The notes under the pieces: generated by a model
The model's database searches: none
Seen by the model: the letters and a program-made list of their open reading frames with translations, nothing else
Told to the model about the DNA's origin: nothing
In this document: positions 8,986 to 53,216 of the stretch, in pieces
How positions within the stretch are numbered: the first letter of the stretch is position 1
Layout: the number at the start of each line of letters is the position of its first letter
Program-made: the position numbers and the translations under genes
From: an uncultured Holophagales bacterium
GTDB taxonomy: Bacteria; Acidobacteriota; Thermoanaerobaculia; Multivoradales; UBA5704
Direction: 5' to 3'
Assembly (NCBI GenBank): GCA_963842525.1
Contig: CAWJGT010000011.1
Location: 160,001-224,000, forward strand
DNA: 64,000 bases

Positions 8986-9056
8986 GGTCAACGCTTCGGG
9001 GCCTCAACGCGCATCTGGGCGCGAGCCCAAGTGTCCGCTGCAGGCCGGCGTTGGCC
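8986..9056 (-). other. Integron attC site
   Basis: Minus strand reads GGCCAAC-gccGGCCTGCAGCgg...gcGTTGAGGCC-ccgaagc-GTTGACC, i.e. R''/L''/L'/R' imperfect palindrome, 71 bp, just after a stop codon. Confidence 0.75.
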
Positions 9057-10519: not shown

Positions 10520-10612
10520 GGCTAACGCTCTGCGCTTGAGCGGCCGGCGGCAATAGACGCTCGGACATGACGAGTCGGTCGCCCGCCGGTCTGCTCCAAG
10601 CGCTGGTTAGCC
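10520..10612 (-). other. Integron attC site
   Basis: Minus strand reads GGCTAAC-ca-GCGCTTGGAGCAGACCGGC...GCCGGCCGCTCAAGCGC-agagc-GTTAGCC, 93 bp, canonical architecture with an extrahelical base. Confidence 0.9.
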
Positions 10613-11582: not shown

Positions 11583-11596
11583 GGCTAACCTCTACC
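11583..11596 (-). other. attI-like core site (GTTAGCC) heading array A, split from its upstream part by IS66
   Basis: GGTAGAG-GTTAGCCA is perfectly complementary to the R'' TGGCTAAC ending the first cassette. After removing the IS it is homologous to 19200-19235. Confidence 0.7.
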
Positions 11597-11693
11597 GTAT
11601 CTGTTTACCGCCCTAGTGCCGCCTTCCCCGAGCGGTGGCACGTCCGCAAGGGCTTGAAGTTCTCTTCTCGGCATGGTCTAATGTCTTTCAGGC

Positions 11694-13125
11694 ATGCCGA
11701 CTTACGAGGAACTCCTTCAAGAGAACTCTGAGCTTCGCCAAGACAACGGTGAGCTTCGCCAGCGGGTGGAGGAGCAGGAGCGCCAGATTGCGCACCTGAA
11801 GCGCCGAATCGTCGATCTGGAGAAACTTGTCGAGGAGCTACGGCGCCGGGGCAAACGCCAGGCTGCCCCCTTCTCGAAGGGAGATCCGAGCGAGGATCCC
11901 AAGTCTCCAGGGCGCAAAGCCGGGGATCAATATGGTCAGCAAGCGACTCGAGCTGTGCCCGATCACGTCGACGAAACCATCGTGGTGGAGTGCCCGCTGT
12001 ATTGTGAGCACTGTGGGGGTCAGGTCATTCCGCAGGGCGAAGCTCGCCAGTATCAGACCGATCTGCCGCCGATTCGGCCGGTGACGACGGAGTTCATCCT
12101 CCATTATGGGAAGTGCTCGGCATGTGGCCGGGAAGCTGTGGGGCGTCACCCGCGCCAGACTTCCCAGGCGTTCCGGGTCGGCAACGTGCAACTCGGTCCA
12201 AACGTGTTGGGGCTCGCCGCCTGGCTCAACAAGGTCGGAGGCTTGAGCTACGGCAAGATCGCCGCGTTGCTGAAGGAGCTGGCTGGACTGTCTGTGTCGC
12301 GCTCGGCCCTGTGCCGCGCGCTGCTTCGCATGAGTAAGAAGCTGGAGCCCTTGTACGAGGAGCTGAAGGCGAAGATCCGGAGCTCTCCTGTGGTGTACCC
12401 GGACGAGACGGGCTGGCGGGAGGGGGGCTATAGCGTGTGGTTGTGGGTGTTCACCAATCGCAGCGAGACGGTCTACAGCATCCAGCCGGGTCGTGGCTAT
12501 GCCGAGGCCTCTGAGGTCCTGGGGGAGGGCTTTGTCGGCGTGCTGGTGGCTGATGGTTGGGCTCCCTATCAGAAATTTGAAGAAGCGACTCATCAGACCT
12601 GTCTGGCGCATCTGTTGCGCCGTTGCGAGGAGCTGCTGGAGAAGGCGACAGGGGGTGCGGTGCGCTTTCCTCGGGCGGTGAAAGAGATCCTGCAGGCCGC
12701 CTTGGAGGCGCGAGATCAGCGGGACGCGGGCAAGCTCAGCGGCGAGGCGCTGGAGAAGGTCAAGCAGGACTTGGAGGCTCCAGATGGAAAGGCGTCTGTC
12801 GGGGCAGTTCACGAACCCCGACAACCAGCGTCTGGCTCAGCATTTGATACGTCACCAGGAGCAGCTGTTTGTCTTCCTGGAACGCACGGATGTGGAGGCG
12901 ACCAATTGGCCGGCCGAACAAGGGATTCGCCCGGCGGTCATCAACCGCAAGACATCTGGGGGAAATCGGACGGCCGAGGGGTCCCAGGCGCAAGCGGTCT
13001 TGATGAGTGCCCTGCGCACATTTCAGCAACACCAAGTCGGGACACTCGAGATCTTGCCCCAGCTTCTGCGCAGCCCCCAGCTACCGAAGCTTGAGGCAAT
13101 ACTTCCTGCGTCACAGCCACCGTAA
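11694..13125 (+). CDS. IS66 transposase (frameshift near 12778)
   Basis: Coiled-coil N-terminus, Cys zinc finger, DETGW, ADG..Y, QTCLAHLLR and TNWPAEQGIRPAV motifs. Confidence 0.9.
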
Positions 13126-13255
13126 CAGTTCTCGCCACGAGTTATCCGTGGCTCCAGGTCGGTAGCCGCTCGCCCTCGTCAGGTCGCCTGGCCAGCGCGG
13201 ACGTGTGTCCAGGGAAAACCTTCCCCAAAAGTGCCGCTGACGGTAAACAGATACC

Positions 13256-13935
13256 ATTTGAAGAAGCGACTCATCAGACCTGTCTGGCGCATCTGTTGCG
13301 CCGTTGCGAGGAGCTGCTGGAGAAGGCGACAGGGGGTGCGGTGCGCTTTCCTCGGGCGGTGAAAGAGATCCTGCAGGCCGCCTTGGAGGCGCGAGATCAG
13401 CGGGACGCGGGCAAGCTCAGCGGCGAGGCGCTGGAGAAGGTCAAGCAGGACTTGGAGCTTCCAGATGGAAAGGCGTCTGTCGGGGCAGTTCACGAACCCC
13501 GACAACCAGCGTCTGGCTCAGCATTTGATACGTCACCAGGAGCAGCTGTTTGTCTTCCTGGAACGCACGGATGTGGAGGCGACCAATTGGCCGGCCGAAC
13601 AAGGGATTCGCCCGGCGGTCATCAACCGCAAGACATCTGGGGGAAATCGGACGGCCGAGGGGTCCCAGGCGCAAGCGGTCTTGATGAGTGCCCTGCGCAC
13701 ATTTCAGCAACACCAAGTCGGGACACTCGAGATCTTGCCCCAGCTTCTGCGCAGCCCCCAGCTACCGAAGCTTGAGGCAATACTTCCTGCGTCACAGCCA
13801 CCGTAACAGTTCTCGCCACGAGTTATCCGTGGCTCCAGGTCGGTAGCCGCTCGCCCTCGTCAGGTCGCCTGGCCAGCGCGGACGTGTGTCCAGGGAAAAC
13901 CTTCCCCAAAAGTGCCGCTGACGGTAAACAGATAC
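13256..13935 (+). repeat. Direct duplicate of 12575-13254 (3' part of IS66)
   Basis: Identical apart from the indel at the GAGCTC site. Confidence 0.9.
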
Positions 13936-14048
13936 CCTCTACCTTAAAGATTCACCGGCACCCTGTTGCGCCGGCCTATCCTTCAAATCAGCCAGTCAGC
14001 TCTTCTGCTTCTCTCGGGCATGAGGGTGCCAAGTCTCAGGTGTACTAG

Positions 14049-14077
14049 ATCTTACGTCGTATACGTATCCACGTCAA
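14049..14077 (-). promoter_or_regulatory. Sigma70 promoter (Pc-like) facing array A
   Basis: TTGACG-17 nt-TAAGAT, homologous to 19077-19105. Confidence 0.7.
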
Positions 14078-14357
14078 GACCGCGAGGTCGCTGGATATGC
14101 ATTCTCACCAGGCAGGTACCTCGCAACTCGCAAAGGCGTCCTCCTGGATGAGCGAAGGAAGCTCCTCAGGTGGAGCTGACACTACGCAGTATTGATATTT
14201 GACTCACCAGTGGAAGACCTATACCCCGGCGAAGCATGCCCCACGCAGGTGCAACAAAGGATATGCGGGCCGGAATCGGGTATAAGGGCGTCCTAGGACT
14301 GGTGCGGGGCTGTCCCGCGGCAGGACCGACCGTTTGTGGCAAACGGACCCCGCGGCA

Positions 14358-14589
14358 GTAGAGACGCCCCAGTCCGCAACCACAAACCAATCGGCGTGCA
14401 CCGCCGTCGGGGCGTCTCCGCGGCACCAACCACCACCAGTGCCGACGATCGCCACCAGGGGCGGATGGATAGCCGGCGGGTTGTCAGGTGGCAAGACCAA
14501 CCGTTCGTGGTAAATGGGGCTGCTGTGGAGAGACGCCCCGACTGTTTGCGCCCGGTAAGGTCCGTGGTCACGGACTGGGGCGTCTCTAC
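14358..14589. repeat. GTAG-type REP doublet (GTAGAGACGCCCC...GGGGCGTCTCTAC), REPIN-like
   Basis: ~30-bp terminal inverted repeats plus an internal degenerate pair at about 14409 and 14526. Confidence 0.7.
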
Positions 14590-14631
14590 GGGACTCTACG
14601 GGACAACAACGACCACCACTGCCGGCGATTG

Positions 14632-14749
14632 GGCTTTCAGGCCGCGGGGGTTGATCGCCTCTCTGCCCTCCGTTGTCCCGGCCCGTTGGGCCGGGTGGAG
14701 AAGAAATTTGCGCGCGCCACACGAGGATTCTCGGATGTAGTAGATCAGG
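14632..14749 (+). repeat. Partial copy of the REP/BIME family targeted by the IS110 element
   Basis: CTTTCAGGCCGC...CCGGCCCGTTGGGCCGGGTGGAG...GTAGTAGATCAGG matches 25135-25205 and the reverse complement of 42843-42880. Confidence 0.7.
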
Positions 14750-15660
14750 CCGACCACTGGATGGCCGGCGGGCGCACCGAGGCGCAGACCGGCATTCCAT
14801 CGGGGGCGGTGAAGCTCGAGCTCTCCGACCAGCAAACCCGACTGGAGCGCCTTTGCGAGCACTTCGGACGGAACGGCATCGAGGCGAAGCTTCGCCCGGC
14901 GAAACATCGCCTGGGGACCTGCACCCTTACGTCCCGTCCACGTGAGATAGACGAAGCGTTCACCGGGAGGGCCGTTGACGGCCGGGCCGCGGAAGGCGGG
15001 CACGCCATTCTTTTCGCAGACCTCGATGTGCGTCTCCCATGTCGCCTCCCGCAGGTCCGCGGGGATGGTGTCCTGCGAATCGCACCCGACCTTTTGCGCC
15101 AGGGCCACACGAATGTCACGGTAGGGGCCGCAGGTGGTGCCCGGCAGGCGCCGGCCGAGGATCCGCAACACGACGCGCTGCCACGACGGCCCCAACCCGG
15201 CCACTCGCGGCGGACGCGGGCGCTCGGGAGGAAGCAAGGCATGGCGCGCGCGGCGTTCGCGCGCAGCGGGCGACTTCGCTGCGAGGATCTCTTCCCGCAG
15301 CATACGCTGCTGCGCGCGGGTGTGGGCCTCCCAGCGGGCGCGGGCCTCAGGCACGCTGTCGATCAGCGCCTGGAGCTGAGCGGGGAGCTCCGGGGATGCG
15401 ATCGAGATCGCGAGCGTAGCCCGCTCACCAGGCGCTTTGCCAACCGCCCCGAGCGTCTCTTTCCGGAGCTCGACGAACCAGCGATCGTCGTCCCACCGAT
15501 GAAGCGATCGGCGTCCGAGAGGGATGCCATCGAGGGTTCCCTCGACGGTCGTCGTTGCCGAGAGGCTCCAGGCAGCCACCGCCGACGCCGGCACGACGAC
15601 GAACGCCGCCATGTCGGGGTGTTTCCGCTCGATGAGGACTTCCAAGGTCACCGGGTCCAT
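14745..15660 (-). CDS. DUF1905/YdeI-like domain + DUF5990-like domain protein (frameshift near 14815)
   Basis: VEGTLDG...RWFVEL N-domain. FRGPAVNGPPGERFVYLTW...MFRRAKLRL...DGMPVCASVRPPAIQWS C-domain. Confidence 0.65.
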
Positions 15661-15816
15661 GAACACCTCGGGCTCATCCTATCGCCATGCAACACCTTCC
15701 GAACCCACATCGATTCGACGGAAGCGGGAGACAGGATCACCAGGAACCGGTGCCAGCTCACTGAGCCCTGGCTCCAGGGTTGACCGGATCCTGGAGAGAC
15801 TGTATATAAGATCTCT

Positions 15817-16092
15817 ATGAAGACTCTCACCATCACCGAGGCCAAGAAGAACCTGGGGCGCTGGCTGGCGGCTGCCGCCAGCGGTGATGACGTTGGCATC
15901 ATCTTGGGGGCTGACATCATCGCCCTCCGCAAAGTGGAAGTGGAATCTACAGACTTTGCGCAGCGTGAGTACGATGCGACTCCAGAGCAGGTCGCCGCCT
16001 TGCAGGAAGCCGTGGACAATCGCTATCGCCGGCTCAGGCGCTCAGGGAAGCTCTTGACGGTCACAGCGAACGAGCTGAGAGGACTTGTTTGA
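15817..16092 (+). CDS. Phd/YefM-like antitoxin
   Basis: MKTLTITEAKKNLGRWL N-terminus, overlapping the toxin start. Confidence 0.7.
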   Translation: MKTLTITEAKKNLGRWLAAAASGDDVGIILGADIIALRKVEVESTDFAQREYDATPEQVAALQEAVDNRYRRLRRSGKLLTVTANELRGLV

Positions 16093-16391
16093 AGAAGCTC
16101 CTCTCTCTCGATCCAAACGTACTGAAACGGCTAAAAAAGCTCGAAAAAAGGGACCGTGTCGAATGCTTGCTGGCCCTCGTTGAATTGGCGGACACTTTCG
16201 GTCAACCTCATAGCCACAGCGGGATTGGCATCCGCAAGCTCGGCGACCGTCTTTTCGAGTGTCGGGACAACTTGGCTTTGCGTTTCCTGTTTGAAAACCG
16301 ATCCGAAGACCTCTTCGTCTTTTTCTTGGGCAACCACACAGAAATCCAGAAACTTCTTCGCGCTGGCAGCTTGGGCTCAGGCCGCAAATGA
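16089..16391 (+). CDS. RelE/ParE-superfamily toxin
   Basis: GQPHSHSGIGIRKL..LFECR...LRFLF...LGNH pattern, ~100 aa, coupled to the antitoxin. Confidence 0.7.
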   Translation: MKKLLSLDPNVLKRLKKLEKRDRVECLLALVELADTFGQPHSHSGIGIRKLGDRLFECRDNLALRFLFENRSEDLFVFFLGNHTEIQKLLRAGSLGSGRK

Positions 16392-16486
16392 CTTCCGGCG
16401 ACGGTGCGGCAGAGTCCGGCAGGATTCTCCCCAAAGCGGATCTCCAGAAAATGCTGGCCGAATTGGCTCGCCCGTAGCCGCTGCCG

Positions 16487-17551
16487 TCAAAGATCCGTGG
16501 CGTCGGCGGCGGTCAGCTTTTCGTTGAGCAGATAATCATCGCTCAGGTATTTGAGGATCGCGCGGCCGATCTTGGGATCGAACCGTTCCTTGACCGGCCG
16601 GACCACCACCCCTTCGCGGATGTGCTGGTCGGGTAGGGTGGTCTGGCCGCGGCTCAGCTCGGCGATCCGTTCGAGCGAGAACGGTCCGCGCTCGAGAAGC
16701 GGAACGGTGGCGACGCCGTGGTGCTCGCAGAGCGCGGCGAAGTCGTCATAGTCGAGGAAGTGCTCGCCCACGAGGACGTCGAAGGCGGCGAAGCCGAGCC
16801 CGTCGCGCTTGCCGTAGTGCAGGCTTTGCACGCGGCTGCCGTAGATCTCGCCGTAGACGATCGCCACCGGATGCTGCTGCTTGAGCTCGTCGAGCAGGCT
16901 GCGTACCGGCTCCAGGGTGGAGGGGAACCAATAGGTATTTGTGCCGATCTCCTCGGGCGCCGGACGCTTGCGCTGCAGCCCGTGCGAGCCGGCGAGAAGC
17001 TCGCCCTCGACCCAGCCGATGCGGGCATTGGTGCCGTGGATCTTCTCGGTCACCGCGACCTCTTCACCGGGCGCGAGGACTTCGGGGAAGTTGCGCAGGT
17101 TCTCGATATCGGTGTACCGCTGGAAGAGCGGATGGTTGGGCTCGGAATCGCCGGCCGAGAACTTCACCGGCGGCCGGAACTTGCCGATCCCGTAGTGCTC
17201 GCGCACGTCGGTCCCCACCGGCCAGCTCGGATCGTCGGGCCGCACCACCAGCCCGAAGGAGGGCTCGCCGCGCAGGCGCACCTGGCGGACGACGAGGTCG
17301 CGCTGGCCCTCGACGTTGGTGCGCTCGGAGAGGTAGCTCACCACGCCGATGCGCTCGGCCATCTCCCGCGGCAGGGTGCTGTCCGGCGGGATGAAGACCA
17401 CCCGCTCGCCGGGCGCGAACTCGGGCGAGCCGTCCTCGCGCTTGCGGATCACCGCCTGCCAACCCTTGATGCGGGCGAGGAAGAGGCGGTCGGCATTGGG
17501 GTGGGGATGGACGGATTCGATTTCGACGACGTTGGCGATCACCGATGACAT
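16487..17551 (-). CDS. RNA ligase, DRB0094 family
   Basis: N-terminal HPNADRL OB-like domain, motif I TEKIHGTN, GEIYG, FDV, REGVV, ILK. Confidence 0.9.
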   Translation of the reverse strand: MSSVIANVVEIESVHPHPNADRLFLARIKGWQAVIRKREDGSPEFAPGERVVFIPPDSTLPREMAERIGVVSYLSERTNVEGQRDLVVRQVRLRGEPSFGLVVRPDDPSWPVGTDVREHYGIGKFRPPVKFSAGDSEPNHPLFQRYTDIENLRNFPEVLAPGEEVAVTEKIHGTNARIGWVEGELLAGSHGLQRKRPAPEEIGTNTYWFPSTLEPVRSLLDELKQQHPVAIVYGEIYGSRVQSLHYGKRDGLGFAAFDVLVGEHFLDYDDFAALCEHHGVATVPLLERGPFSLERIAELSRGQTTLPDQHIREGVVVRPVKERFDPKIGRAILKYLSDDYLLNEKLTAADATDL

Positions 17552-17699
17552 AGGATTACCTTTCGGGCTTACACTATCGCATCGACCGGCGATTGCACCA
17601 CTGGCGTCACCGGATCTCGATTCGGGGCGCTTACTCTGGTCGTAGAAGGTATCTCCTTACCCAGAAGGGGTGTACACTGATATTCGTAAGGAGGATCAC

Positions 17700-17969
17700 A
17701 TGTCGGCGAGCACTCTGACCTCGAAAGGACAAGTCACGATCCCAAAGGAAGTCCGCGAGCGCCTCGGCTTGAAGGAAGGCGACCGTCTGGTCTTCCGATT
17801 CGACGATCAGGGCAACCTTCTGGTTCGGCCGGAGGCCCGGAGTCCTCTCGGGAGACTGCCCGGCCTTCTTCACCATCTCGCTGGAGAACGGCCGGTCACA
17901 GTGGAAGAGATGAATGAGGCGGTCAAACGGCGAGCTGCTGAGCGGTTCAAGGAGGTCGCTCGGCGGTGA
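17700..17969 (+). CDS. AbrB/MazE/SpoVT-family antitoxin
   Basis: STLTSKGQVTIPKEVRERLGLKEGD. RBS GGAGG and a CCTTAC...GTAAGG operator-like IR lie upstream. Confidence 0.9.
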   Translation: MSASTLTSKGQVTIPKEVRERLGLKEGDRLVFRFDDQGNLLVRPEARSPLGRLPGLLHHLAGERPVTVEEMNEAVKRRAAERFKEVARR

Positions 17970-18035
17970 TCGCCCTCGATACGAACATTCTGATCCGCCT
18001 CCTTGTGAGGGACGACCCCAGTCAAACGGCTCACA
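17966..18035 (+). pseudogene. vapC: Truncated VapC PIN toxin
   Basis: MIALDTNILIRLLVRDDPSQ, then similarity is lost at a GTCATCCTGAGCGTAGCGAAGGATCT repeat (about 18075-18100). Confidence 0.75.
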
Positions 18036-18398
18036 GCGAACAAGATCGACCGGCAGGTACTCCGGGTCCGTCGTGTCATCCTGAGCGTAGCGAAGGATCT
18101 GGGCGGCGGGAAACGTCCCAGAATCCAAGCCGGAGCGGACTCGCGGCCTCCCTTTCAGACAGGGAGAGGCTCGCTCCTCGTGGAGCCCGCCGCGAAGTCG
18201 CCGTAGTCGGAATCGAGGCTGCGCGAGTGAACCTGTTGTCATCTACGGCCGAGCTGTGCCGCCAGGGACTGCACACGCCAAGTCGTTGACTGCCAAGCAG
18301 ATTCCACCGAGATCGAAGCTCTGCTCATGGACCCGGGACAACGTGCCACGGTCCATGGATCATGCGTCAGGGACCGCACTTCATGTGCCATGGACCGC

Positions 18399-18692
18399 AG
18401 TCAACGTGCCGTTTCCTTTAGTCAATGCTTGAGGCACCCGGGTCCGTGGCCCGTTTCCTACAGTCAATGCTTGAAGGCCCCGGGTCCGCGTGCCGTTTCC
18501 TTTAGTCCATGCTACAGGGCCCCGGGTCCGCGTGGCGTTTCCTGTAGTCAATGCTTCAAGGCCCCGGGTCCGCGCCCCGTTTCCTGTAGTCAATGCTTGA
18601 GGACCCCGGGTCCGCGTGCCGTTTCCTACAGTCAATGCTTGAAGGACCGCGGTCCGCGTGACCCTTTATCCAGTCCTCACCTGAGGGACCGC
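18399..18692. repeat. Tandem repeat, seven 42-bp units (2 x 21), with degenerate units back to about 18330
   Basis: Units start at 18399, 18441, 18483, 18525, 18567, 18609 and 18651. Consensus GGTCCGCGTGCCGTTTCCTNYAGTCAATGCTTGARGGCCCCG. Confidence 0.9.
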
Positions 18693-19076
18693 GGTCCATG
18701 AGGCCTGCCGCGCGGACGACGTCGCTCGAAGTGCACGCGACGTGACGACGGGCGGAGGCAGTGCCGCTCTTCGAGCGGCCGGCGTCTTATACAGCCCTGT
18801 CGCGAGGGACTTCAGACGAACCGCGCGAGCTCAAGGGCAAGACTTGAGCCGCGTCCTAAAATGCCTTCATACCCGATTCCGTGACGTAGATCGAGTCCCT
18901 GCACCGGCCACGGTCTGCCCTCTCTGACGCAGAAGAATTTTTGGTCTGCCTGAAACGCCAAGTGCCTATAGGGCCAAGTCCCACCTCGCGAGACGCCTTC
19001 GCTCGTCATCACGACGTAATTGCGACTCTCAAGGCACCAGCCCGGCCAGAATGCCTATTCACACAAGCCTATGGTC

Positions 19077-19105
19077 TTGACGCGGATACGGAAAAGATGT
19101 AAGGT
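19077..19105 (+). promoter_or_regulatory. Sigma70 promoter (Pc-like) facing array B
   Basis: TTGACG-17 nt-TAAGGT. Confidence 0.7.
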
Positions 19106-19199
19106 CAGCTAAATCAAGGAGGCTAAGAATCTTGCGCGCTCAAAACCCTTCGGCCGGCCATGGAGTCAACCGGCAGGTTGTGTCGCATACGCCAGCGCG

Positions 19200-19235
19200 C
19201 GGGGTGCCGTCGAATCTGTGAGGCAGAGGTTGGAC
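19200..19235 (+). other. attI-like site heading array B (core GTTGGAC at 19229-19235)
   Basis: GTTGGACGCC is complementary (1 mismatch) to GGCGGCCAAC at the end of the first cassette. The 29 nt upstream of the core match the array A site at 23 positions. Confidence 0.7.
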
Positions 19236-19250
19236 GCCGAAGGAACTAGG

Positions 19251-19907
19251 ATGCCGAGGCACTATATCTACAGAATTGACCACGACACGGGTTATGCTCC
19301 CCGCTTGGCAGGCAGGATCTGCTTCCTGTGTGGCTGCAAGAATACGACCGTGGAGCAATGGGCTGAGAAAGGGAGTTGGGTGATCGGTCTTGGTGGAAAC
19401 GGAACGGGAAAACCTGGCGCATTGATCTATGCAATGGAGGTCGACTCGACCCCTACGTTTGAGGAGTTTTCTCGGCAGTATCCAGCCGAAACAAGATACC
19501 TGCACAAATGGGGCACTACTCCAGAAGCTCCGGTGCTTCTATCACGCCATTTCTACTACTTTGGCCAGGATGCACCGAAGCTTCCGACAGCTCTCGGGCA
19601 TCTCGCCATCCGGAGCCAAGGTTGTAAGCGCGTGAAGGACGATGACATCTTGAAGCTTCAACGCTTCTTGGCTCGACACTACAGAGGACCTGGCCGGCCG
19701 AACAACCCTTTCAACTTTGATACGGGAGAAATTGACACCGACCCTTGCCTCATTGACTGTAGCCGTGATTCGGGTAGTTTAAAATCTGGTGGGGAAGGTC
19801 TGTTTACACTCCCCGGTGACAGAAAGAGCACTCGGCGGCCAACCCGGCGCGCGAGCTGGCAAGCCAAGGGGGAGGCGGCCAACCCGGCCGATCGAGCGGA
19901 CGGCTGA
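19251..19907 (+). CDS. Nucleotide-modification-associated domain 2 (Nmad2)-like protein (cassette gene)
   Basis: YIYRIDHDTGYAP...CFLCGCK...G.WVIGLGG...LIYAMEV...VLLSRHFYYFG motif order. Confidence 0.7.
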   Translation: MPRHYIYRIDHDTGYAPRLAGRICFLCGCKNTTVEQWAEKGSWVIGLGGNGTGKPGALIYAMEVDSTPTFEEFSRQYPAETRYLHKWGTTPEAPVLLSRHFYYFGQDAPKLPTALGHLAIRSQGCKRVKDDDILKLQRFLARHYRGPGRPNNPFNFDTGEIDTDPCLIDCSRDSGSLKSGGEGLFTLPGDRKSTRRPTRRASWQAKGEAANPADRADG

Positions 19908-19931
19908 GCCGCCGCTCATCGGCATCCTCGT
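19877..19931 (+). other. attC site interrupted in R' by the group II intron (completed by 21968-21972)
   Basis: GGCCAAC-ccgg-CCGAT(C)GAGCGG...CCGCTCATCGG-catcctc-GT|TGGGC. Rejoining gives a 60-bp attC with GTTGGGC. Confidence 0.85.
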
Positions 19932-21967
19932 GTGCGCCAAGACAAGCTTGGCGCTTCTTGCAGGGTGTAAGTCCCTGCCGGGTAAGGTCTAACCAACCAC
20001 CCGTACCGAGTGTTGCAGATCTGGCGGAGGAGAGTCGACGTCGACGAACCGAACAAGAGGTCTGGAGCGTACACAGGGAACCATGTAGGCCGTAAGGGAG
20101 ACCGCACCTCCCCCAGGTCTGGTACAGCCCCGAAAGCGCCGATTACAGATGCAGGCGGCGATCGTTTACGTTTGCGAGAAGCCCACGCGAAGGAATCGCT
20201 TTGGTGAGATTCTGGAAGCCTGCCGGGGTCATCAGGACATGGCATGCATGGAGAGGAGCGTCGAAGAACTTGGGAGACCCCATTGATTCCTGCACTCTTA
20301 GAGAGGCAATCTGCAAGGCGCGAGGCTGGCTAGGCACAGAAGGGGAAACCCGGACCCAGAGAGAATGCCTGGCGCCTAAACGGAGGATCGACGAGAGATG
20401 ACAGGTAGGCGACCTGAACCGAAAAGGCAAGGGAGACTGAAGATCATTGGGGAGTCGGATCAGCCCATAGTACTCCGAGAACGGGAGAGCCGTTCACATG
20501 GGGAAGGAGCTGACGGGAACCCGTAGCCCGCAAAGGAAACATGACCCAGATGCGACAGGCTGGACAACTCATGCCAACCTCCCTGCGGGGAATAGCGAAC
20601 AAGGCAAGCTCTGACAAGAACCACCGTTTCGGCAATCTCTTTGGTCTGCTGACCATGACGTTCCTTCTGTCCTGCTGGGAGCGAGTCAACAAGAAAGCTG
20701 CCAGCGGCGTGGATCGGGTTTCGGCCCGGGCTTACGCGAAGGATCTGGCGGGAAACGTAAGAGACCTTTGGGAGCGTGTGAAGCGGGGTAGTTACCGGGC
20801 GAAGCTGGTCCGGCGACGTCACATTCCGAAGGAAGGGAGTACAGCGACTCGGCCACTGGGGATCCCGGCGGTGGAGGACAAGCTGCTCCAGATCGCAGTC
20901 TCCCGCATTCTCAATGCCATCTACGAGCCGATCTTTCTGCCGTGCAGTTGGGCATACAGGCTCGGCCGTAATGCGCGGGAAGCAGTGCGGACGCTGAAAC
21001 AGGAGCTTCAGTTTGGTTGCTACGGTTACGTTGTGGAGATTGACATCAAGGGGTTCTTCGACCGGATCGACCATGAGAAGCTCATGGAGATGCTCGAGCT
21101 GAGAATCAACGATCGGCCGTTCCTGCGGCTGATCTGGAAATGGCTCAAGGCGGGAGTATTGGAAGAGGGTGGGAAGGTGATCCACCCGGACACGGGCTGT
21201 CCGCAAGGTAGTGGGATATCACCCGTGCTTGCCAATATCTACCTTCACTACGTTCTGGACCTTTGGTTCACGGAGGTGGTGAAGCCCCGGTGTAAAGCGC
21301 GGGCCTTCATGTGCCGGTTTGCGGACGATGTGGTGTTCGCCTTCCAGTGGCATGAGGAGGCCGAGCGGTTCTTCCGGGTCCTGCCGAAACGGCTGGCGAA
21401 GTACGGGTTGGAGCTTTCGGCGGAGAAGAGCCGGATGGTGCGGTTCAGCCGGTTCCAACTGGGCAAGAGCTCGGAGAGGTTCGACTTCCTCGGGTTCGAG
21501 TTCCGCTGGGTGAAGGACCACAAGGGAGTGGCCCGGGTGACGTGCCGGACATCGCGCAAGCGGCTTCGGGCGTCGTTGACCAGGGTGACCGAGTGGATCA
21601 AGGCCGAGCGGCACCTGCCGGTACGCCAGTTGGTGGGGGCGTTGAACGCGAGGCTTCGTGGGCACTATAATTACTACGGGGTGATCGGCAACTACGCAAG
21701 CCTATGCTCATACTTCAATCAAGCGAAACGGCTGCTGATGAAGTGGTTGGGGAGGCGGAGTCAAAAGAGCCGGATGAGCTGGGTGAAGTTCAGCGCCCTG
21801 CTGAAGCGATTTCCACTGGAGGAACCCTGGATCGCGGAGAGTCGGCATCGGCAGATGGTTCTTGTCTGAGTTGCTGAGTGCGGAAGCGAGGGTAACCGAA
21901 GAGCCCGGTGCGGAAAAACCGCACGCCGGGATCTGTGCGGGGGGCGCTTCGGCGTCCCTACCGCGAC
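19932..21967 (+). mobile_element. Group II intron (IIB/class E-like by IEP and D5 appearance)
   Basis: 5' GTGCG, D5 GAGCCCGGTGCGGAAAAACCGCACGCCGGGATC, D6 ending CCCTACCGCGAC. Removal restores GTTRRRY. Confidence 0.9.
20541..21869 (+). CDS. ltrA: Group II intron reverse transcriptase/maturase, no endonuclease domain
   Basis: RPLGIP, DIKGFFD, GCPQGSGISP, RFADD, FDFLGF and maturase X (LRGHYNYY). Alternative start at 20571. Confidence 0.95.
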   Translation: MTQMRQAGQLMPTSLRGIANKASSDKNHRFGNLFGLLTMTFLLSCWERVNKKAASGVDRVSARAYAKDLAGNVRDLWERVKRGSYRAKLVRRRHIPKEGSTATRPLGIPAVEDKLLQIAVSRILNAIYEPIFLPCSWAYRLGRNAREAVRTLKQELQFGCYGYVVEIDIKGFFDRIDHEKLMEMLELRINDRPFLRLIWKWLKAGVLEEGGKVIHPDTGCPQGSGISPVLANIYLHYVLDLWFTEVVKPRCKARAFMCRFADDVVFAFQWHEEAERFFRVLPKRLAKYGLELSAEKSRMVRFSRFQLGKSSERFDFLGFEFRWVKDHKGVARVTCRTSRKRLRASLTRVTEWIKAERHLPVRQLVGALNARLRGHYNYYGVIGNYASLCSYFNQAKRLLMKWLGRRSQKSRMSWVKFSALLKRFPLEEPWIAESRHRQMVLV

Positions 21968-22000
21968 TGGGCGACGAACAACTAAAGAGGGACAAGAAAC

Positions 22001-22633
22001 ATGGCTGCAGTGCCCATCTCTACTCGCTCATCGCCTGATGTCGTCGCCAGCCTCTCGGACGCGATCTTCGGCCCGATCCAGAAGGCCTACAGAGTGGGCG
22101 GGTTTGCATTGGCATTCCTTGGCGTCGGGGTCCTTATGATGCTGACCGTCTTCTTGTCCGACACGACTGACTGGCGTGGCAAGGTTCTTTTCGCAGTCGG
22201 GGTGCTTCTAGTTCTAGCAACCGGCGTGCTCTTTCTGCTCAGGGATGTGATGCCTCTTTTTCGAGTTCAGCAGCGCATCGCAGAAAACCGCGAATTCATT
22301 GACGCAGTGCAGAGAACCGCGATTGACTTAACGACCGTGCTCGACTCTGTACAGGAACTTGCTGTCGAGAACGCCGAGCGAGTCACGGAGGCATTCGATA
22401 AGCTGCGTCCTGTCGTGCGTGCTCTACCTGTTGTCGGTGCCGTGGCCGACAGCGGTCCAGTAGTTTCAACAGCTGCGACGGCGCGAAAGATCGTTGAGAT
22501 CGCGACCAAGAGCCGCAACGTTATTGCCAATGTCCGTGAAGCCCTTATTTCTAGCAACCCAGAGCCTCTTCGACAATATTCGGCGGAGCTTGAGCAGATC
22601 AGTGCTTGGTTCAGAGAAGCCGCGTCGCCCTGA
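22001..22633 (+). CDS. Hypothetical 2-TM + helical protein (cassette gene)
   Basis: Starts about 30 nt after the R' box and is followed by R'' TCGCCTAAC, complementary to GTTGGGCGA. Confidence 0.7.
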   Translation: MAAVPISTRSSPDVVASLSDAIFGPIQKAYRVGGFALAFLGVGVLMMLTVFLSDTTDWRGKVLFAVGVLLVLATGVLFLLRDVMPLFRVQQRIAENREFIDAVQRTAIDLTTVLDSVQELAVENAERVTEAFDKLRPVVRALPVVGAVADSGPVVSTAATARKIVEIATKSRNVIANVREALISSNPEPLRQYSAELEQISAWFREAASP

Positions 22634-22669
22634 CGTGACTGGGCGGCAAGGGTACATGAGTAGGCGATC

Positions 22670-22729
22670 GCCTAACAATGCGCTGCACAGGACGGCTGAC
22701 GTCGCGCGGTGAGCTCCCATACGTACTGC
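22670..22729 (+). other. Degenerate attC site
   Basis: GCCTAAC-aatgc-GCTGCAC...GTGAGC-tcccatac-GTACTGC. R' is non-canonical. Confidence 0.55.
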
Positions 22730-22787
22730 CGGCGCAACAGCCGCCACGCAATCGACATCAACAGCCCAACGCAAGTTTGAGGCGACT

Positions 22788-23408: not shown

Positions 23409-23563
23409 AGCCGAGCCCGGGCTGAGGCCGCAGGCCGATGCCCTGGGTCAACAGGGCCCCACAGCCATGCGGCCTGAAAGGCCGCGAGAACCTATCTCTT
23501 GCGGCCTTTCAGGCCGCATCGGTGGGCTACCTTTCTACCCAGGGCATCGGCCTTCGGCCTCAG
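23409..23563. repeat. REP/BIME element (CCCAGGGCATCGGCC.CGGCCTCAGCCCTGGG and GGCCTGAAAGGCC hairpins) interrupted by IS110
   Basis: Homologous to 42821-43032. An empty target copy lies at 23413-23448 on the minus strand. Confidence 0.8.
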
Positions 23564-23647
23564 ATGCTATGCAGGGCGGGGGATGCAAAAGCGGGTCGCC
23601 GGTTGTATGTTTCGGGGGAACTTTAGCGGTTAGAAAGGAGAACCCCG

Positions 23648-24784
23648 ATGAACCAGACAACCCGCATTGCAGAGTCTACGCGAACGGAGGCGGTGTTACA
23701 TATGGCCCTGGAGCTCGGCGCCAGCGAGTGGAAGCTGGGGTTTGGTGTAGAGGCTGGACGGAGGGCAAGTCAGCGGACAGTTGCAGCCGGGGACCTTGCC
23801 GGGCTGATGCTGGAGATCGCGCGGGCCAAACATCGCCTTGGCGTGCCGGAGTCGGCTCGGGTGGTGAGTTGCTACGAGGCCGGACGGGATGGATTCTGGC
23901 TCCACCGGTTCCTGCTGTCGGAGGGAGTGGAAAACGTTGTCATGGACTCCTCGAGCATCGAGGTGAATCGGCGGCATCGCCGGGCCAAGACGGATGGGGT
24001 GGACGTGGAGAAGTTGCTGTCGTTGTTGATCCGTTACGAGCGCGGGGAGAAGAAGGTGTTCGGGGTAGCGCACGCGCCGACCCCCGAGCAGGAGGACGAG
24101 CGTCACCTGGCTCGGGAGCTTGAGTCTCTGAAGCAGGAGCGCACGGCCCACACCAATCGGATCAAGGGCCTGCTGGCCAGCGTGGGGGCTCGGGGGGTGA
24201 AAGTCGGCAAGGGCTTTCTGCAGCAGCTGGATCAGGCGAGGCAGTGGAACGGCGAGAGGCTGCTGGCGAGCTTGCGGGAGCGTTTGAGGCGAGAGGGCGA
24301 GCGTCTGGCTGTGCTGGAGAGTCAGATTGCCGAGCTCGAGCGGTTTCGCCGGACGGCCAGCGTGGAAGCGACGGAGAAGGTGCAGCGGCTGCAAGAGCTC
24401 AAGGGGATCGGAGGCAACAGTGGTTGGCTGTTCGTGGTGGAGTTCTTCGGCTGGCGGCAGTTCCGCAACCGCCGTGAGGTGGCCGGTTTGGCGGGTCTGA
24501 CGCCGATGCCTTATCAGAGCGGTGACACGGTCAACCACGAACAAGGGATCAGCAAGGCGGGGAATCGTCGGGTCCGGGCGATGGCGATCGAGATCGCTTG
24601 GGGCTGGTTGCGCTTCCAACCGCAGAGTCGCCTGAGCTTGTGGTTTCAGGAGCGTTATGGTCCTGGGAGCCGCCGATCTCGGCGGGTGGGGATCGTGGCC
24701 CTCGCCCGCAAGCTGCTGATCGCGCTGTGGCGCTATCTGGACTACGGTGTGATTCCTGAGGGTGCTGAGCTGAAGACGAAGTAA
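23648..24784 (+). CDS. IS110 DEDD recombinase/transposase
   Basis: CYEAG, AKTD..D, GLTPMPYQSG, GISKAGN and ALARKLL motifs. RBS AAGGAG. Confidence 0.95.
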   Translation: MNQTTRIAESTRTEAVLHMALELGASEWKLGFGVEAGRRASQRTVAAGDLAGLMLEIARAKHRLGVPESARVVSCYEAGRDGFWLHRFLLSEGVENVVMDSSSIEVNRRHRRAKTDGVDVEKLLSLLIRYERGEKKVFGVAHAPTPEQEDERHLARELESLKQERTAHTNRIKGLLASVGARGVKVGKGFLQQLDQARQWNGERLLASLRERLRREGERLAVLESQIAELERFRRTASVEATEKVQRLQELKGIGGNSGWLFVVEFFGWRQFRNRREVAGLAGLTPMPYQSGDTVNHEQGISKAGNRRVRAMAIEIAWGWLRFQPQSRLSLWFQERYGPGSRRSRRVGIVALARKLLIALWRYLDYGVIPEGAELKTK

Positions 24785-24797
24785 TCTGGGAGGAAAA

Positions 24798-24982
24798 AGC
24801 TCGGAGAGAAACGACTGGTGGAGCGTGCCCGGCCCAGGGCTTGGTTCGGCTTCCGAACCGTTCTCTCAGATGGGGCCGCTCCGAGAGCTTGCCTGAGTCG
24901 CTCGACAGCGCATGCTGCATTTGGTGTCCTGACCCAAAGAGGTCAGCACGGATAGAAGCTGGAAAGGACGACTCCCCAGGTC
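24798..24982 (+). ncRNA. Predicted bridge/seekRNA with target-binding and donor-binding loops
   Basis: Two stem-internal loop-hairpin modules. The loops carry GCCCAGGGCT and CTCAG (target) and GCATTT and ATAGAAG (circle junction). Confidence 0.75.
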
Positions 24983-25242
24983 CCTGCACACTCCGGGCAA
25001 GCGCCAGACGGACTGAGAACCAAGAAGCGAGAAAACCGGTGACAGGAGGGGGGGCCAGGAAAGGGAAAACGACGAACCACCACCCCGAGACGCTTGACAC
25101 CGGTGGCCCACATAGAAGCCCTGGGCTCCGTTCTGCCGGCCCGTTGGGCCGGGTGGAGACGAAATCTGCGCGCCGCACGAGGATTCTCAGGGGTAGTAGA
25201 TCAGGGCTGTACGGTGGCAGGCTCCGACTGAAGGCCGGCACT

Positions 25243-41225: not shown

Positions 41226-41264
41226 ACCACCCGGCCCAACGGGCCGGCAGAACGGAGCCCAGGG

Positions 41265-42820
41265 CTTCTATGTGGGCCACCGGTGTCAAGCGTCTCGGGG
41301 TGGTGGTTCGTCGTTTTCCCTTTCCTGGCCCCCCCTCCTGTCACCGGTTTTCTCGCTTCTTGGTTCTCAGTCCGTCTGGCGCTTGCCCGGAGTGTGCAGG
41401 GACCTGGGGAGTCGTCCTTTCCAGCTTCTATCCGTGCTGACCTCTTTGGGTCAGGACACCAAATGCAGCATGCGCTGTCGAGCGACTCAGGCAAGCTCTC
41501 GGAGCGGCCCCATCTGAGAGAACGGTTCGGAAGCCGAACCAAGCCCTGGGCCGGGCACGCTCCACCAGTCGTTTCTCTCCGAGCTTTTTCCTCCCAGATT
41601 ACTTCGTCTTCAGCTCAGCACCCTCAGGAATCACACCGTAGTCCAGATAGCGCCACAGCGCGATCAGCAGCTTGCGGGCGAGGGCCACGATCCCCACCCG
41701 CCGAGATCGGCGGCTCCCAGGACCATAACGCTCCTGAAACCACAAGCTCAGGCGACTCTGCGGTTGGAAGCGCAACCAGCCCCAAGCGATCTCGATCGCC
41801 ATCGCCCGGACCCGACGATTCCCCGCCTTGCTGATCCCTTGTTCGTGGTTGACCGTGTCACCGCTCTGATAAGGCATCGGCGTCAGACCCGCCAAACCGG
41901 CCACCTCACGGCGGTTGCGGAACTGCCGCCAGCCGAAGAACTCCACCACGAACAGCCAACCACTGTTGCCTCCGATCCCCTTGAGCTCTTGCAGCCGCTG
42001 CACCTTCTCCGTCGCTTCCACGCTGGCCGTCCGGCGAAACCGCTCGAGCTCGGCAATCTGACTCTCCAGCACAGCCAGACGCTCGCCCTCTCGCCTCAAA
42101 CGCTCCCGCAAGCTCGCCAGCAGCCTCTCGCCGTTCCACTGCCTCGCCTGATCCAGCTGCTGCAGAAAGCCCTTGCCGACTTTCACCCCCCGAGCCCCCA
42201 CGCTGGCCAGCAGGCCCTTGATCCGATTGGTGTGGGCCGTGCGCTCCTGCTTCAGAGACTCAAGCTCCCGAGCCAGGTGACGCTCGTCCTCCTGCTCGGG
42301 GGTCGGCGCGTGCGCTACCCCGAACACCTTCTTCTCCCCGCGCTCGTAACGGATCAACAACGACAGCAACTTCTCCACGTCCACCCCATCCGTCTTGGCC
42401 CGGCGATGCCGCCGATTCACCTCGATGCTCGAGGAGTCCATGACAACGTTTTCCACTCCCTCCGACAGCAGGAACCGGTGGAGCCAGAATCCATCCCGTC
42501 CGGCCTCGTAGCAACTCACCACCCGAGCCGACTCCGGCACGCCAAGGCGATGTTTGGCCCGCGCGATCTCCAGCATCAGCCCGGCAAGGTCACCCGGCTG
42601 CAACTGTCCGCTGACTTGCCCTCCGTCCAGCCTCTACACCAAACCCCAGCTTCCACTCGCTGGCGCCGAGCTCCAGGGCCATATGTAACACCGCCTCCGT
42701 TCGCGTAGACTCTGCAATGCGGGTTGTCTGGTTCATCGGGGTTCTCCTTTCTAACCGCTAAAGTTCCCCCGAAACATACAACCGGCGACCCGCTTTTGCA
42801 TCCCCCGCCCTGCATAGCAT
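41265..42820 (-). mobile_element. IS110/IS1111 element, copy 2 (inverted; appears identical to copy 1 apart from one extra base)
   Basis: CT cores at 41265-66 and 42821-22, same REP target position as copy 1. Confidence 0.92.
41599..42736 (-). CDS. IS110 transposase (apparent +1 frameshift near 42592)
   Basis: Same protein as 23648..24784. Confidence 0.9.
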
Positions 42821-43032
42821 CTGAGGCCGAAGGCCGATGCCCTGGGCAGAGAGGTGATCAAACCCCGCGGCCTGAAAGGCCCGCGAGAGAGATTTCTGCC
42901 GGAGTCGGCTCAGCGCTCGGTTTAGCCAGAGGTCTCGCGGCCTTTCAGGCCGCCTGAACGTGGGGCCTGTTGACCCAGGGCATCGGCCTTCGGCTAGCCC
43001 TGGGCTGGAGTCTCCCGGCCCGTTGGGCCGGC
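42821..43032. repeat. REP/BIME element of the IS110 target family
   Basis: GGCCTGAAAGGCC / GGCCTTTCAGGCC hairpins. An unoccupied variant target CCCAGGGCATCGGCCTTCGGCTAGCCCTGGGCT lies at 42975-43006. Confidence 0.8.
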
Positions 43033-46648: not shown

Positions 46649-46748
46649 GGAAGCGCTCGGGGGCTGGTGCCTTCTGCGGTCTTCAAAACCGTTGTCCCGT
46701 GCCGGTTGCGGCATGGGGGGTGGGTTCGATTCCCATGCGCTTCCGCCA
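46649..46748 (+). tRNA. selC: tRNA-Sec (UCA)
   Basis: 8-bp acceptor stem GGAAGCGC/GCGCTTCC, anticodon loop CTTCAAA, long variable arm, GTTCGATTC, GCCA end. Confidence 0.95.
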
Positions 46749-47287: not shown

Positions 47288-47832
47288 GTGCCCTGCTCCG
47301 GGGGTCTTCGGGAGGCTGTAGGCGGGGAGTGACACGGGATTGCCACAAGAGCATGGAACCTTCCCGGGTCAAACCTCTAAGCCAGCCAAGCAGATATAGG
47401 ACGGAAGGCATGGGAACCATCCGGTCTTCAAAACCATTGCCCGGTGCCGGTTGCGGCGTCGGGGGGTGGGTTCGATTCCATGCGCTTCCGCCATTCGGTG
47501 CAAGCCCACTTCAGCGTCAGGCCACCGTTATCCCTCGAATCTGCACTCCGCGTGACACGGCAGTGACACAGGGAAGACCGCAGGAGGCATCAGCCCGGGG
47601 AAACTTCTGCTTCTCTCGTCTTCAGGCGTACGGCGGGAGGTTTGGGGATGGGCGTAGAATGCGACGCGAGCTCGGTCATGAGTCGTCCGGGTAGGCCTCG
47701 GCGGGGCCGCAATCCTTCGTCGGGGCTGCGTTAGGGAACGCCATGATGCCATACTTTCATCTGTAAAGCCGAGTACTTGCTTGACACTCTTTCGCTCTGA
47801 CCGAGCGAGACCTCCTGACGGCCCGGGACTTT

Positions 47833-52841: not shown

Positions 52842-52928
52842 GCGCGGTCAGGAAGCCTTGGCGCACCTTCTCAAGAGAGAGCTGTGTGTGCGAGGAGGGA
52901 GCACTCACCGCGGAAAGGAGGTGATCCC

Positions 52929-52985
52929 ATGAAGATCAGGACCAACGTCAAGGCCGGTACCGAGAACATCGTCTGGGGGACGTAG
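52929..52985 (+). CDS. 18-aa micropeptide MKIRTNVKAGTENIVWGT (putative RiPP/signal precursor)
   Basis: Perfect SD AAAGGAGGTGAT; tandem paralogue at 53036. Confidence 0.75.
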   Translation: MKIRTNVKAGTENIVWGT

Positions 52986-53035
52986 TCGTCCTGAGGCTCG
53001 GCGTCCGTCGCTGAACCCGGAAAGGAGGTGATCCC

Positions 53036-53092
53036 ATGAAAGTCAGGACCAACGTCAAGGCTGGTGACGAGAACATCGTCTGGAGCGTGTAG
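53036..53092 (+). CDS. 18-aa micropeptide MKVRTNVKAGDENIVWSV
   Basis: Same SD and spacing, same length, synonymous changes versus copy 1. Confidence 0.75.
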   Translation: MKVRTNVKAGDENIVWSV

Positions 53093-53216
53093 TCGGCTCG
53101 ATACTGGAGTCAACCCTGAAGCTCTCCTTGACCCGCTCCGGCGGAGCTGTTCGGCGGAGCGGGGCGCCATGCCAGGTGTGGGCCGGCAGGCCGGTTTGTG
53201 GTACCTTCTTCCTGCG

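Follow-up and report, generated by a model that had tools for sequence, protein, structure and literature searches.

Short cassette arrays headed by probable relic attI sites and promoters in the genome of an uncultured Holophagales bacterium

The two arrays and their heads

The stretch of DNA analysed here, referred to as the window (64,000 nucleotides (nt); contig C11:160001-224000 of a 9.95-Mb genome, about 4% of which is unassembled), comes from an uncultured Holophagales bacterium and carries two short arrays of integron-type gene cassettes, A and B, each preceded by a related non-coding segment that we call a head. An earlier note on this DNA had described the heads as twin divergent platforms, each composed of a cassette promoter (Pc) and an attI-like site, without an integrase gene. 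Our analyses indicate that A and B are probably relic attI + Pc heads of co-directional chromosomal integrons, which now head short arrays resembling clusters of attC sites lacking an integron integrase (CALINs). The features on which this reading is built are as follows (positions are those of the window).

14300 to 13936, minus strand: head A, matched by the nhmmer profile at C11:174300 to 173928
-35 at 14077-14072 and -10 at 14054-14049, minus strand: Pc-like promoter of head A (TTGACG, 17 nt, TAAGAT; 14077 to 14049)
11597 to 13935, plus strand: IS66-family insertion element, with terminal inverted repeats and an 8-bp target duplication, CCTCTACC, at 11589-11596 and 13936-13943
11583 to 11596, minus strand: second copy of the target duplication plus TTAGCC, giving the crossover GTTAGCC and the start of cassette A1
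10520 to 10612, minus strand: attC A1, 93 nt, with R''/R' cores complementary at 0 mismatches and a bottom-strand DNA fold of -29.9 kcal/mol with bulged bases
8986 to 9056, minus strand: attC A2, 71 nt, from a relaxed scan and fold, closing cassette A2
18229 to 18292, plus strand: partial second copy of the left end of the head (left-end profile match, E=7e-5)
18769 to 19231, plus strand: head B, full length, from nhmmer matches, a promoter pattern match at C11:179077 and alignments
19229 to 19931, plus strand: cassette B1, from the crossover GTTGGAC to the 5' part of attC B1, with an Nmad2-domain open reading frame (ORF) at 19251-19907
19932 to 21967, plus strand: group II intron (Rfam RF02005, 96 bits; RF00029 match ending at 21967; flank comparison)
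21973 to 22783, plus strand: cassette B2, with an ORF at 22001-22633 that has no known family and an attC read by eye

Head B displays the complete order of elements, namely a CTTATAC motif, a hairpin (18829-18849), a spacer, the -35 (TTGACG, 19077-19082) and, after 17 nt, the -10 (TAAGGT, 19100-19105), a leader and the attI, with G|TT at 19229-19231. The upstream end of head A is truncated, the first ~95 nt of a full head being missing; its promoter is followed by a leader of ~110 nt and then by the left part of attI, which ends at the G of GTT (13936, duplicated at 11589). On the minus strand, head A then reads on, across the IS66-family insertion, into TTAGCC at 11588-11583. The homology between the two heads, put at about 240 bp in the earlier note, is real (with head B as nhmmer query, head A was retrieved at E=1.5e-20) and is longer than had been stated, reaching ~14300 in A and 18769 in B; blastn aligned 112 bp at 70.5% identity. 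Both promoters are as they had been quoted, each with a 17-nt spacing, a count on the sequence gave the same 23 identical bases of the 29 ahead of GTT, and the common upstream blocks (CCTTCGCTC, TTGCGA, AGGYACCWGCCYGG and GAATGC) are visible in a MAFFT alignment. The absence of an intI-like ORF behind either head was borne out as well: with intI defined by the TIGR02249 profile (cut-off 265 bits), no match over the cut-off was found anywhere in the genome, and tblastn with the IntI of relatives (nine intact proteins; E<=0.01) found nothing on contig C11 in the two queries listed. Between the partial and the full left end of head B lie six or more 42-bp tandem repeats (18347-18704; family D1), and tandem repeats were also seen upstream of heads on contigs C3 and C9.

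The IS66-family element (Pfam DDE_Tnp_IS66; NCBIfam transpos_IS66, 189.9 bits, cut-off 180) sits inside the attI of head A and parts the promoter and leader from cassette array A. Head A is inactivated as an attI, and 2.3 kb of element lie between its promoter and the cassettes. The last 684 bp of the element are duplicated in tandem (12566-13249 and 13247-13930; family D2), and it has what is apparently a single transposase frame, interrupted near 12784.

In array A, cassette A1 contains two overlapping ORFs (11565 to 11071 and 11074 to 10622), for which no family was found in Pfam, PADLOC or NCBIfam, and the inverse core of its attC, GGCTAAC, complements GTTAGCC at the head A junction at 7/7 positions. 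Cassette A2 carries two further family-less ORFs (10477 to 10148 and 10151 to 9090). An ORF with a TfoX_N domain (8958 to 8626; Pfam E=4e-17) follows attC A2, and no further attC was found beyond it. With two attC sites and no integron integrase nearby, array A is a CALIN by definition.

In array B, the Nmad2 assignment of cassette B1 is based on a Pfam match at E=5e-24. Its attC starts with GGCCAAC (19877), and the GT of the R' core lies at 19930-19931, with the rest of the core, TGGGC, at 21968-21972; the group II intron is inserted in this core, and attC B1 was missed by the scans because of this interruption. The intron contains an ORF for a reverse transcriptase/maturase (20541-21869; Pfam RVT_1 and GIIM; NCBIfam group_II_RT_mat, 332 bits). 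Three copies of it are present in the genome, at 19932-21967 of the window, C25:~512329-514364 and C3:~360450-362486, with 99.6-99.8% identity. Each copy is preceded by the 5' half of an attC, whose last bases are GT, and followed by a T plus the remainder of the core, so that the flanks rebuild the cores GT^TGGGC, GT^TGGCC and GT^TGAGA; all three share the same insertion point (R' core, GT^T) and have the orientation of the cassette genes. Judged from its sequence, head B is intact; the intron, however, interrupts its first attC. The candidate attC of cassette B2 (22670-22783; GCCTAAC ... GTTTGAGGC) is degenerate, fails the attC scans and is tentative. Array B as a whole fails the strict attC scan and holds one good, intron-split attC and one degenerate attC. 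PADLOC gave no match for any of 14 ORFs, and NCBIfam none for the eight cassette ORFs. The cassette DNA has a G+C content of 54-59%, versus 63-74% in the DNA flanking the island.

A family of heads across the genome

Three rounds of nhmmer over the bacterium's own genome, in which a strong copy was defined by E<1e-15, retrieved 19 head copies on ten contigs, so that A and B are members of a family rather than the twins that had been described. Weaker fragments also exist; C12, for instance, holds a 52-nt core and C22 a piece of the left end. A full head measures ~465 bp. The attI (3') end of the profile is reached by 14 of the 19 heads, the other five being cut short of it; among the heads with a complete end, 11 of 14 have GGTT at the crossover, and the GTT is mutated in heads C19_416944, C25_140896 and C14_183685. 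TTGAC and the -10 pattern TA....T were kept in all 14 aligned heads, which are otherwise 70-90% identical; head A and head C19_416944, for example, share 83% identity over 368 bp.

All-versus-all BLAST of the heads in their 10-kb contexts revealed that the similarity between heads ends from -9 to +8 of an anchor placed 9 nt past the G of GTT, which puts its end between the GTT itself and a point 17 nt further on, and that it starts anywhere from -463 to about -165. The DNA after GTT is unrelated between heads. Upstream of the heads we found ordinary chromosomal genes, including those for SelA, FtsX/EamA, HupE, a SIS-domain protein, a histidine kinase and a protein kinase. An upstream-spacer fragment of a head is present at C25:139949-140011 (minus strand), ~680 nt downstream of head C25_140896 and directly past its first cassette, which suggests nested or rearranged heads.

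Cassette junctions and attC sites

The attC sites were called with a home-made detector, not with the covariance model of IntegronFinder. A strict scan for RYYYAAC...GTTRRRY gave no convincing attC, and the scan was relaxed because the cores here depart from this consensus (e.g., GGCTAAC/GTTAGCC). The relaxed, fold-based scan returned many false positives in G+C-rich DNA, such as the RNA ligase gene and the tandem repeats, and its raw counts were not used. A covariance model from a MAFFT alignment of eight attC sites was not built, the alignment being structurally inconsistent.

In integrons, the 7-mer at the start of a cassette is complementary to the inverse core of the cassette's own attC. 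We compared the 7-mer of each head with the four free bases of the inverse core of the first attC, for the nine heads with both a GTT end and a candidate attC no more than 5 kb downstream. The free bases matched at 4/4 in three heads (A, C14_49254 and C19_516815) and at 3/4 in B and C1_702037. Over the whole 7-mer, the complement was 7/7 in A and two other heads and 6/7 in B and one other. In addition, a ~640-bp cassette encoding a DUF4258 protein and a partner is found twice (92% identical), one copy following head C25_140896 directly and the other following an attC of the C9 array; the homology of the two begins at the crossover, and the inverse core of the attC of the C9 copy complements the start at 7/7.

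The attC sites behind heads have a common R''...L'' signature and bulged folds. Fifteen candidates folded with -13 to -39 kcal/mol on the bottom strand, and bulged bases were present in 12 of 14 distinct candidates. A scan of the genome with the signature gave 29 attC candidates, 20 of which are no longer than 110 nt, and 9 of these 20 lie on the same strand within 5 kb downstream of a head. The 20 short candidates form 13 clusters, comprising seven within 5 kb behind a strong head, two behind head fragments and four without a head within 7 kb. Taken together, the joining of cassettes at G|TT, the varied DNA downstream, the core complementarity and the position relative to intI (below) mark the end of the heads, on sequence grounds, as an attI site.

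Remnants of the integrase gene

The only recognisable intI in the assembly is a broken gene on C9. This gene and head C9_1074012 share a strand, and the gene reads into the head, its stop codon falling 5 nt before the head starts. Its N-terminal half has been split off by an rve-type insertion element; the IntI-specific region is recognisable, followed by an internal deletion or frameshift and then a typical C-terminal tail. A second remnant, consisting of the last 22 intI codons (86% identical by tblastn), is located directly upstream of head C19_416944. A possible intI tail upstream of head B, in a frame reading AAGVLYSPVARDF, was considered and found too weak to count.

Full-length heads start at the CTTATAC motif. 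Four heads without intI (C11_138988, C25_511614, B and C19_516815), which represent at least three subfamilies, have their start within a few tens of bases of the former intI stop; in five heads the start is only ~5-25 nt ahead of the -35 hexamer. The left boundary is slightly blurred, because a further ~8-12 nt upstream, similar to the final codons of intI, are common to head B and a sister head.

Three identical tyrosine recombinases of 325 amino acids are encoded at C3:356673-357650, C9:~1900019-1900996 and C25:~538764-539741, in a 2.9-kb repeat. They are ~37-40% identical to IntI, fall below the TIGR02249 cut-off and are without the ~40-residue IntI-specific domain. Homologues of this recombinase adjoin intI in two relatives (G003:C5 and G010:C3).

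The co-directional layout in relatives

We searched 41 genomes, consisting of this genome (G000) and its 40 nearest relatives, and found intI over the cut-off in 13 of them. Seven of ten intI loci had, on one strand, the intI stop, a spacer of ~300 nt, TTGAC, 17 nt, TAnnnT, ~115-150 nt and AG|GTT; an eighth locus (L036) had a shorter spacer and a first attC core that fits the junction. The head profile matches the promoter part in 3 of the 10 loci, ~310-325 nt past intI and on the same strand. In one relative of the same family (L031/L042), the head could be aligned through the core. A separate contig of that relative bears a second head, which ends at GTT and matches the intI-linked one at 88% identity over 246 bp; upstream of this second head (L039, relative G012, on a contig of 3843 nt) there is no intI, and a transposase-like ORF is present, with the cut 81 nt upstream of the -35. 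A scan of contigs for the promoter pattern returned five loci, two of them from the same-family relative; those in Emergencia, Kiritimatiellae and Clostridium were set aside as chance matches, having neither a profile match nor intI.

In six same-family relatives (loci L029-L034), the spacers between intI and attI hold 2-5 copies of the 8-mer GCTTAT(A/C)C or its complement, versus ~0.2-0.3 expected. This amounts to an enrichment of about tenfold in the spacer, often as inverted pairs, with the first copy 8-40 nt past the intI match; none was found in intI, and the 1.5 kb upstream held only one looser match (CTTACGC, L034). The CTTATAC at which full-length heads of the present genome start is this same motif, and the 8-mer is a candidate accessory binding site.

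Interpretation

The reading of heads as relics is drawn from the intI remnants upstream of two heads together with the same layout beside intact intI in relatives. On this reading, a full head starts, at a CTTATAC-type motif, directly after the intI stop and comprises a hairpin, a spacer, a sigma-70-type promoter facing the cassettes and a leader of ~115 nt, with its last ~30 nt plus G|TT forming the attI crossover. By analogy with integron biology, an integron integrase would formerly have inserted circular cassettes at G|TT, and the promoter would transcribe them. The intI gene has probably since been deleted in A, B and most of the 19 heads, leaving short headed CALIN-like arrays; head A is further disabled by the IS66-family insertion, and the group II intron interrupts the first attC of head B.

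Several suppositions of the earlier note change accordingly. It had taken attI and Pc to abut a divergent intI, whereas the intI of this lineage is located upstream of attI and oriented towards it. It had also proposed a family of stand-alone, non-coding landing pads as an undescribed system. The family is indeed non-coding and diverged, with promoter and core kept; the stand-alone and undescribed part of the proposal is not supported, two heads still carrying intI remnants. The heads are not stand-alone by origin, nor an undescribed stand-alone system; they are probably relics of complete integrons.

A number of observations weigh against this interpretation. Remnants of intI stand at only 2 of the 19 heads, and its loss at the others is something we infer. 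A consensus promoter tool accepted the promoter of head A (9/12) and rejected that of head B, whose -10, TAAGGT, scores 3/6. Of the nine heads tested, four lacked core complementarity (two with 2/4 and two with 1/4), and in these either the attC sites were missed or the junctions are not primary insertions. The attC signature was derived from sites adjacent to heads, and the clustering of candidates behind heads is therefore partly circular; the independent result of the signature scan is that just 11 more short candidates occur elsewhere. Only profile and pattern searches tie the heads to those of relatives, since BLAST of the full head against the 40 relatives, a search too insensitive for the purpose, gave no match at E<=1e-5. 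Promoter activity, integrase binding and past recombination at the heads are likewise deductions from the DNA. Finally, starts near the former intI stop are not predicted by random deletion and hint at continued selection on whole heads or at duplication without intI.

This last point would fit a bolder proposal, which we consider possible though unlikely: the heads may be distributed docking and expression sites that outlive any integrase, are selected and multiply without intI, forming a "multi-attI" architecture. If so, an incoming integron integrase could act on about a dozen chromosomal sites simultaneously, loading cassettes or shuffling them, and selection on the promoter and full attI would explain why deletions stop at the motif by the old stop or ahead of the -35.

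We judge slightly less probable again the explanation in which selection maintains the heads as working stand-alone pads for cassette landing and expression, served in trans by an IntI elsewhere (in the unassembled ~4%, on a plasmid or through transient transfer). Among heads with no more than 70-90% identity, the promoter hexamers and attI core are conserved, and deletions seem to stop where function would begin, five heads starting just upstream of the -35 and four intI-less heads starting at the motif by the former stop, which suggests selection after intI loss or head copying without intI. One cassette is common to a head and another array, and the same-family relative has an intI-less second head closely similar to the intI-linked one. 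However, the assembly has no intact integron integrase, its sole recognisable intI is broken and the 325-residue recombinases are without the IntI-specific domain, so that the distant IntI acting in trans that the earlier note had envisaged has no candidate enzyme in the assembly, conceivable as such use may be. Several heads are dead (A split by the insertion element, three with a mutated GTT and five without the attI end), and all cassette-boundary footprints could predate the loss of intI.

We consider it very improbable that a non-autonomous mobile element, similar to a miniature inverted-repeat transposable element (MITE) or a transposon, ends in this module and spreads by itself, with an outward promoter and the GTT break as its terminus. 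Its multiple copies and sharp 3' boundary would fit such an element, as would the inverted orientation of A and B, 4.5 kb apart (repeat I11), and the tandem segmental copies of heads on C19. Nevertheless, neither target duplications nor terminal inverted repeats were found at the heads, the only duplication being that of the IS66-family element in A; 17 of the 19 copies are unpaired, upstream boundaries vary from -463 to about -57, the boundary follows the complementarity of attC cores, and in relatives, as at two heads here, the module lies collinear with intI.

We hold equally improbable a structured leader RNA or leader peptide, encoded in the ~115-nt stretch after the promoter and controlling downstream genes apart from recombination: the leader is conserved, and 8 of 14 heads keep open a 31-codon frame that is preceded, at 8 nt, by a Shine-Dalgarno-like GAGGA, but the other six are frameshifted or have an early stop, substitutions by codon position (28, 17, 22) are not those of a coding sequence, Rfam gave no match, RNAalifold over 14 sequences gave -3.3 kcal/mol with 11 weak pairs, and the downstream genes are unrelated to one another. 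No frame was conserved in the heads on either strand; an ORF on the reverse strand through the promoter looked protein-like in single copies and was rejected because the frame changes between copies. From the absence of a conserved RNA fold, a coding signature and a conserved frame, we take the conservation of the leader to be at the DNA level, most simply as putative integrase-binding sites.

Other features of the window

The DNA between the two heads contains the following features.

14301 to 18228, no strand assigned: inter-head DNA, characterised by Pfam, NCBIfam and repeats I3/I5/D13; tblastn for intI was negative
14631 to 14720, between the heads: relic of joined IS110-type ends, from repeats
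15666 to 14596, minus strand: DUF1905/OmdA/DUF5990 gene (Pfam)
15817 to 16391, between the heads: Phd-like pair (Pfam)
17551 to 16487, minus strand: RNA ligase gene (NCBIfam RNA_lig_DRB0094)
17670 to 17969, between the heads: MazE/AbrB antitoxin gene with a truncated partner (Pfam)

Two identical IS110-family copies lie in inverted orientation at 23503-25156 and 41227-42881, and the ~90-bp relic between the heads resembles both of their ends joined, with no transposase between. A tRNA-Sec gene (46649-46744) is followed 745 bp on by an 83% identical copy of its 3' part (47422-47496); elements that integrate at tRNA genes usually leave a duplicate of this kind, and we read it as such a footprint. 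Two tandem 85-nt units (52904-52988 and 53011-53095; 86% identical), each with a strong ribosome-binding site and an ORF of ~19 codons, may be small-peptide precursor genes.

Comparison with known systems

The class 1 integron platform has a double-stranded integration site ending in G|TT and a constitutive promoter that reads into promoter-less cassettes, with intI1 divergent and Pc located within intI1. The heads resemble attI1/Pc in the G|TT end and in a putative promoter facing the cassettes; unlike class 1, the promoter here lies in a non-coding spacer downstream of a co-directional intI. We know of no sequence similarity between the heads and the class 1 platform.

A layout closer to the present one is that of integrons of the Treponema denticola type, in which, according to excerpts from PMC3607928, intI is transcribed towards attI, and that of archaeal integrons, in which excerpts from PMC9668308 place attI directly downstream of intI. 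As far as these excerpts go, the likeness comprises the order intI, attI and cassettes on one strand, the crossover at GTT, and a first attC core that matches the 7-mer on the attI side. On the same footing, the differences are that here intI is missing at nearly all heads, that ~19 heads occur in a single genome, that the promoter is conserved, that a spacer of ~465 bp can be defined, and that the host has a same-family relative in the Thermoanaerobaculia, not among the spirochaetes or archaea. In the excerpted part of PMC12901181, Delta-attI-type cassettes are described as partial attI copies away from the integrase-proximal position, in arrays of clinical mobile integrons; unlike these, as described there, whole promoter-bearing heads are found here at separate chromosomal sites beside ordinary genes.

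Headed CALINs, or many intI-less attI/Pc heads in one genome, were not found described in the open-access and bioRxiv full text searched. By the account excerpted from Cury et al. (2016; PMC4889954), attC sites alone, without an integron integrase, define a CALIN, ~95% of CALINs have no recognisable intI pseudogene nearby, and IntegronFinder finds attI only as exact matches to classes 1-3. The profile, promoter and core of the heads provide a sequence handle for environmental attI sites which, as far as that account goes, lie outside the searches of current tools, and the heads suggest that an expression platform can persist long after the loss of the recombinase. The origin of CALINs and of single orphan cassettes is an open question on which these arrays bear: the parts of the preprint by Loot et al. 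(10.1101/2022.09.11.507474) that we cite propose genomic attG insertion as an alternative origin and treat the origin of small CALINs as debated. The present arrays resemble CALINs and single attC sites lacking an integron integrase (SALINs), as far as these sources describe them, in being short attC arrays with no intI nearby and mostly no intI pseudogene alongside; unlike CALINs and SALINs as there defined, most of them start with a recognisable attI and promoter, which argues for an origin from complete integrons rather than from genomic attG insertion. That most of the short arrays found in this genome begin with an attI-plus-promoter head is direct evidence for the "decayed integron" route.

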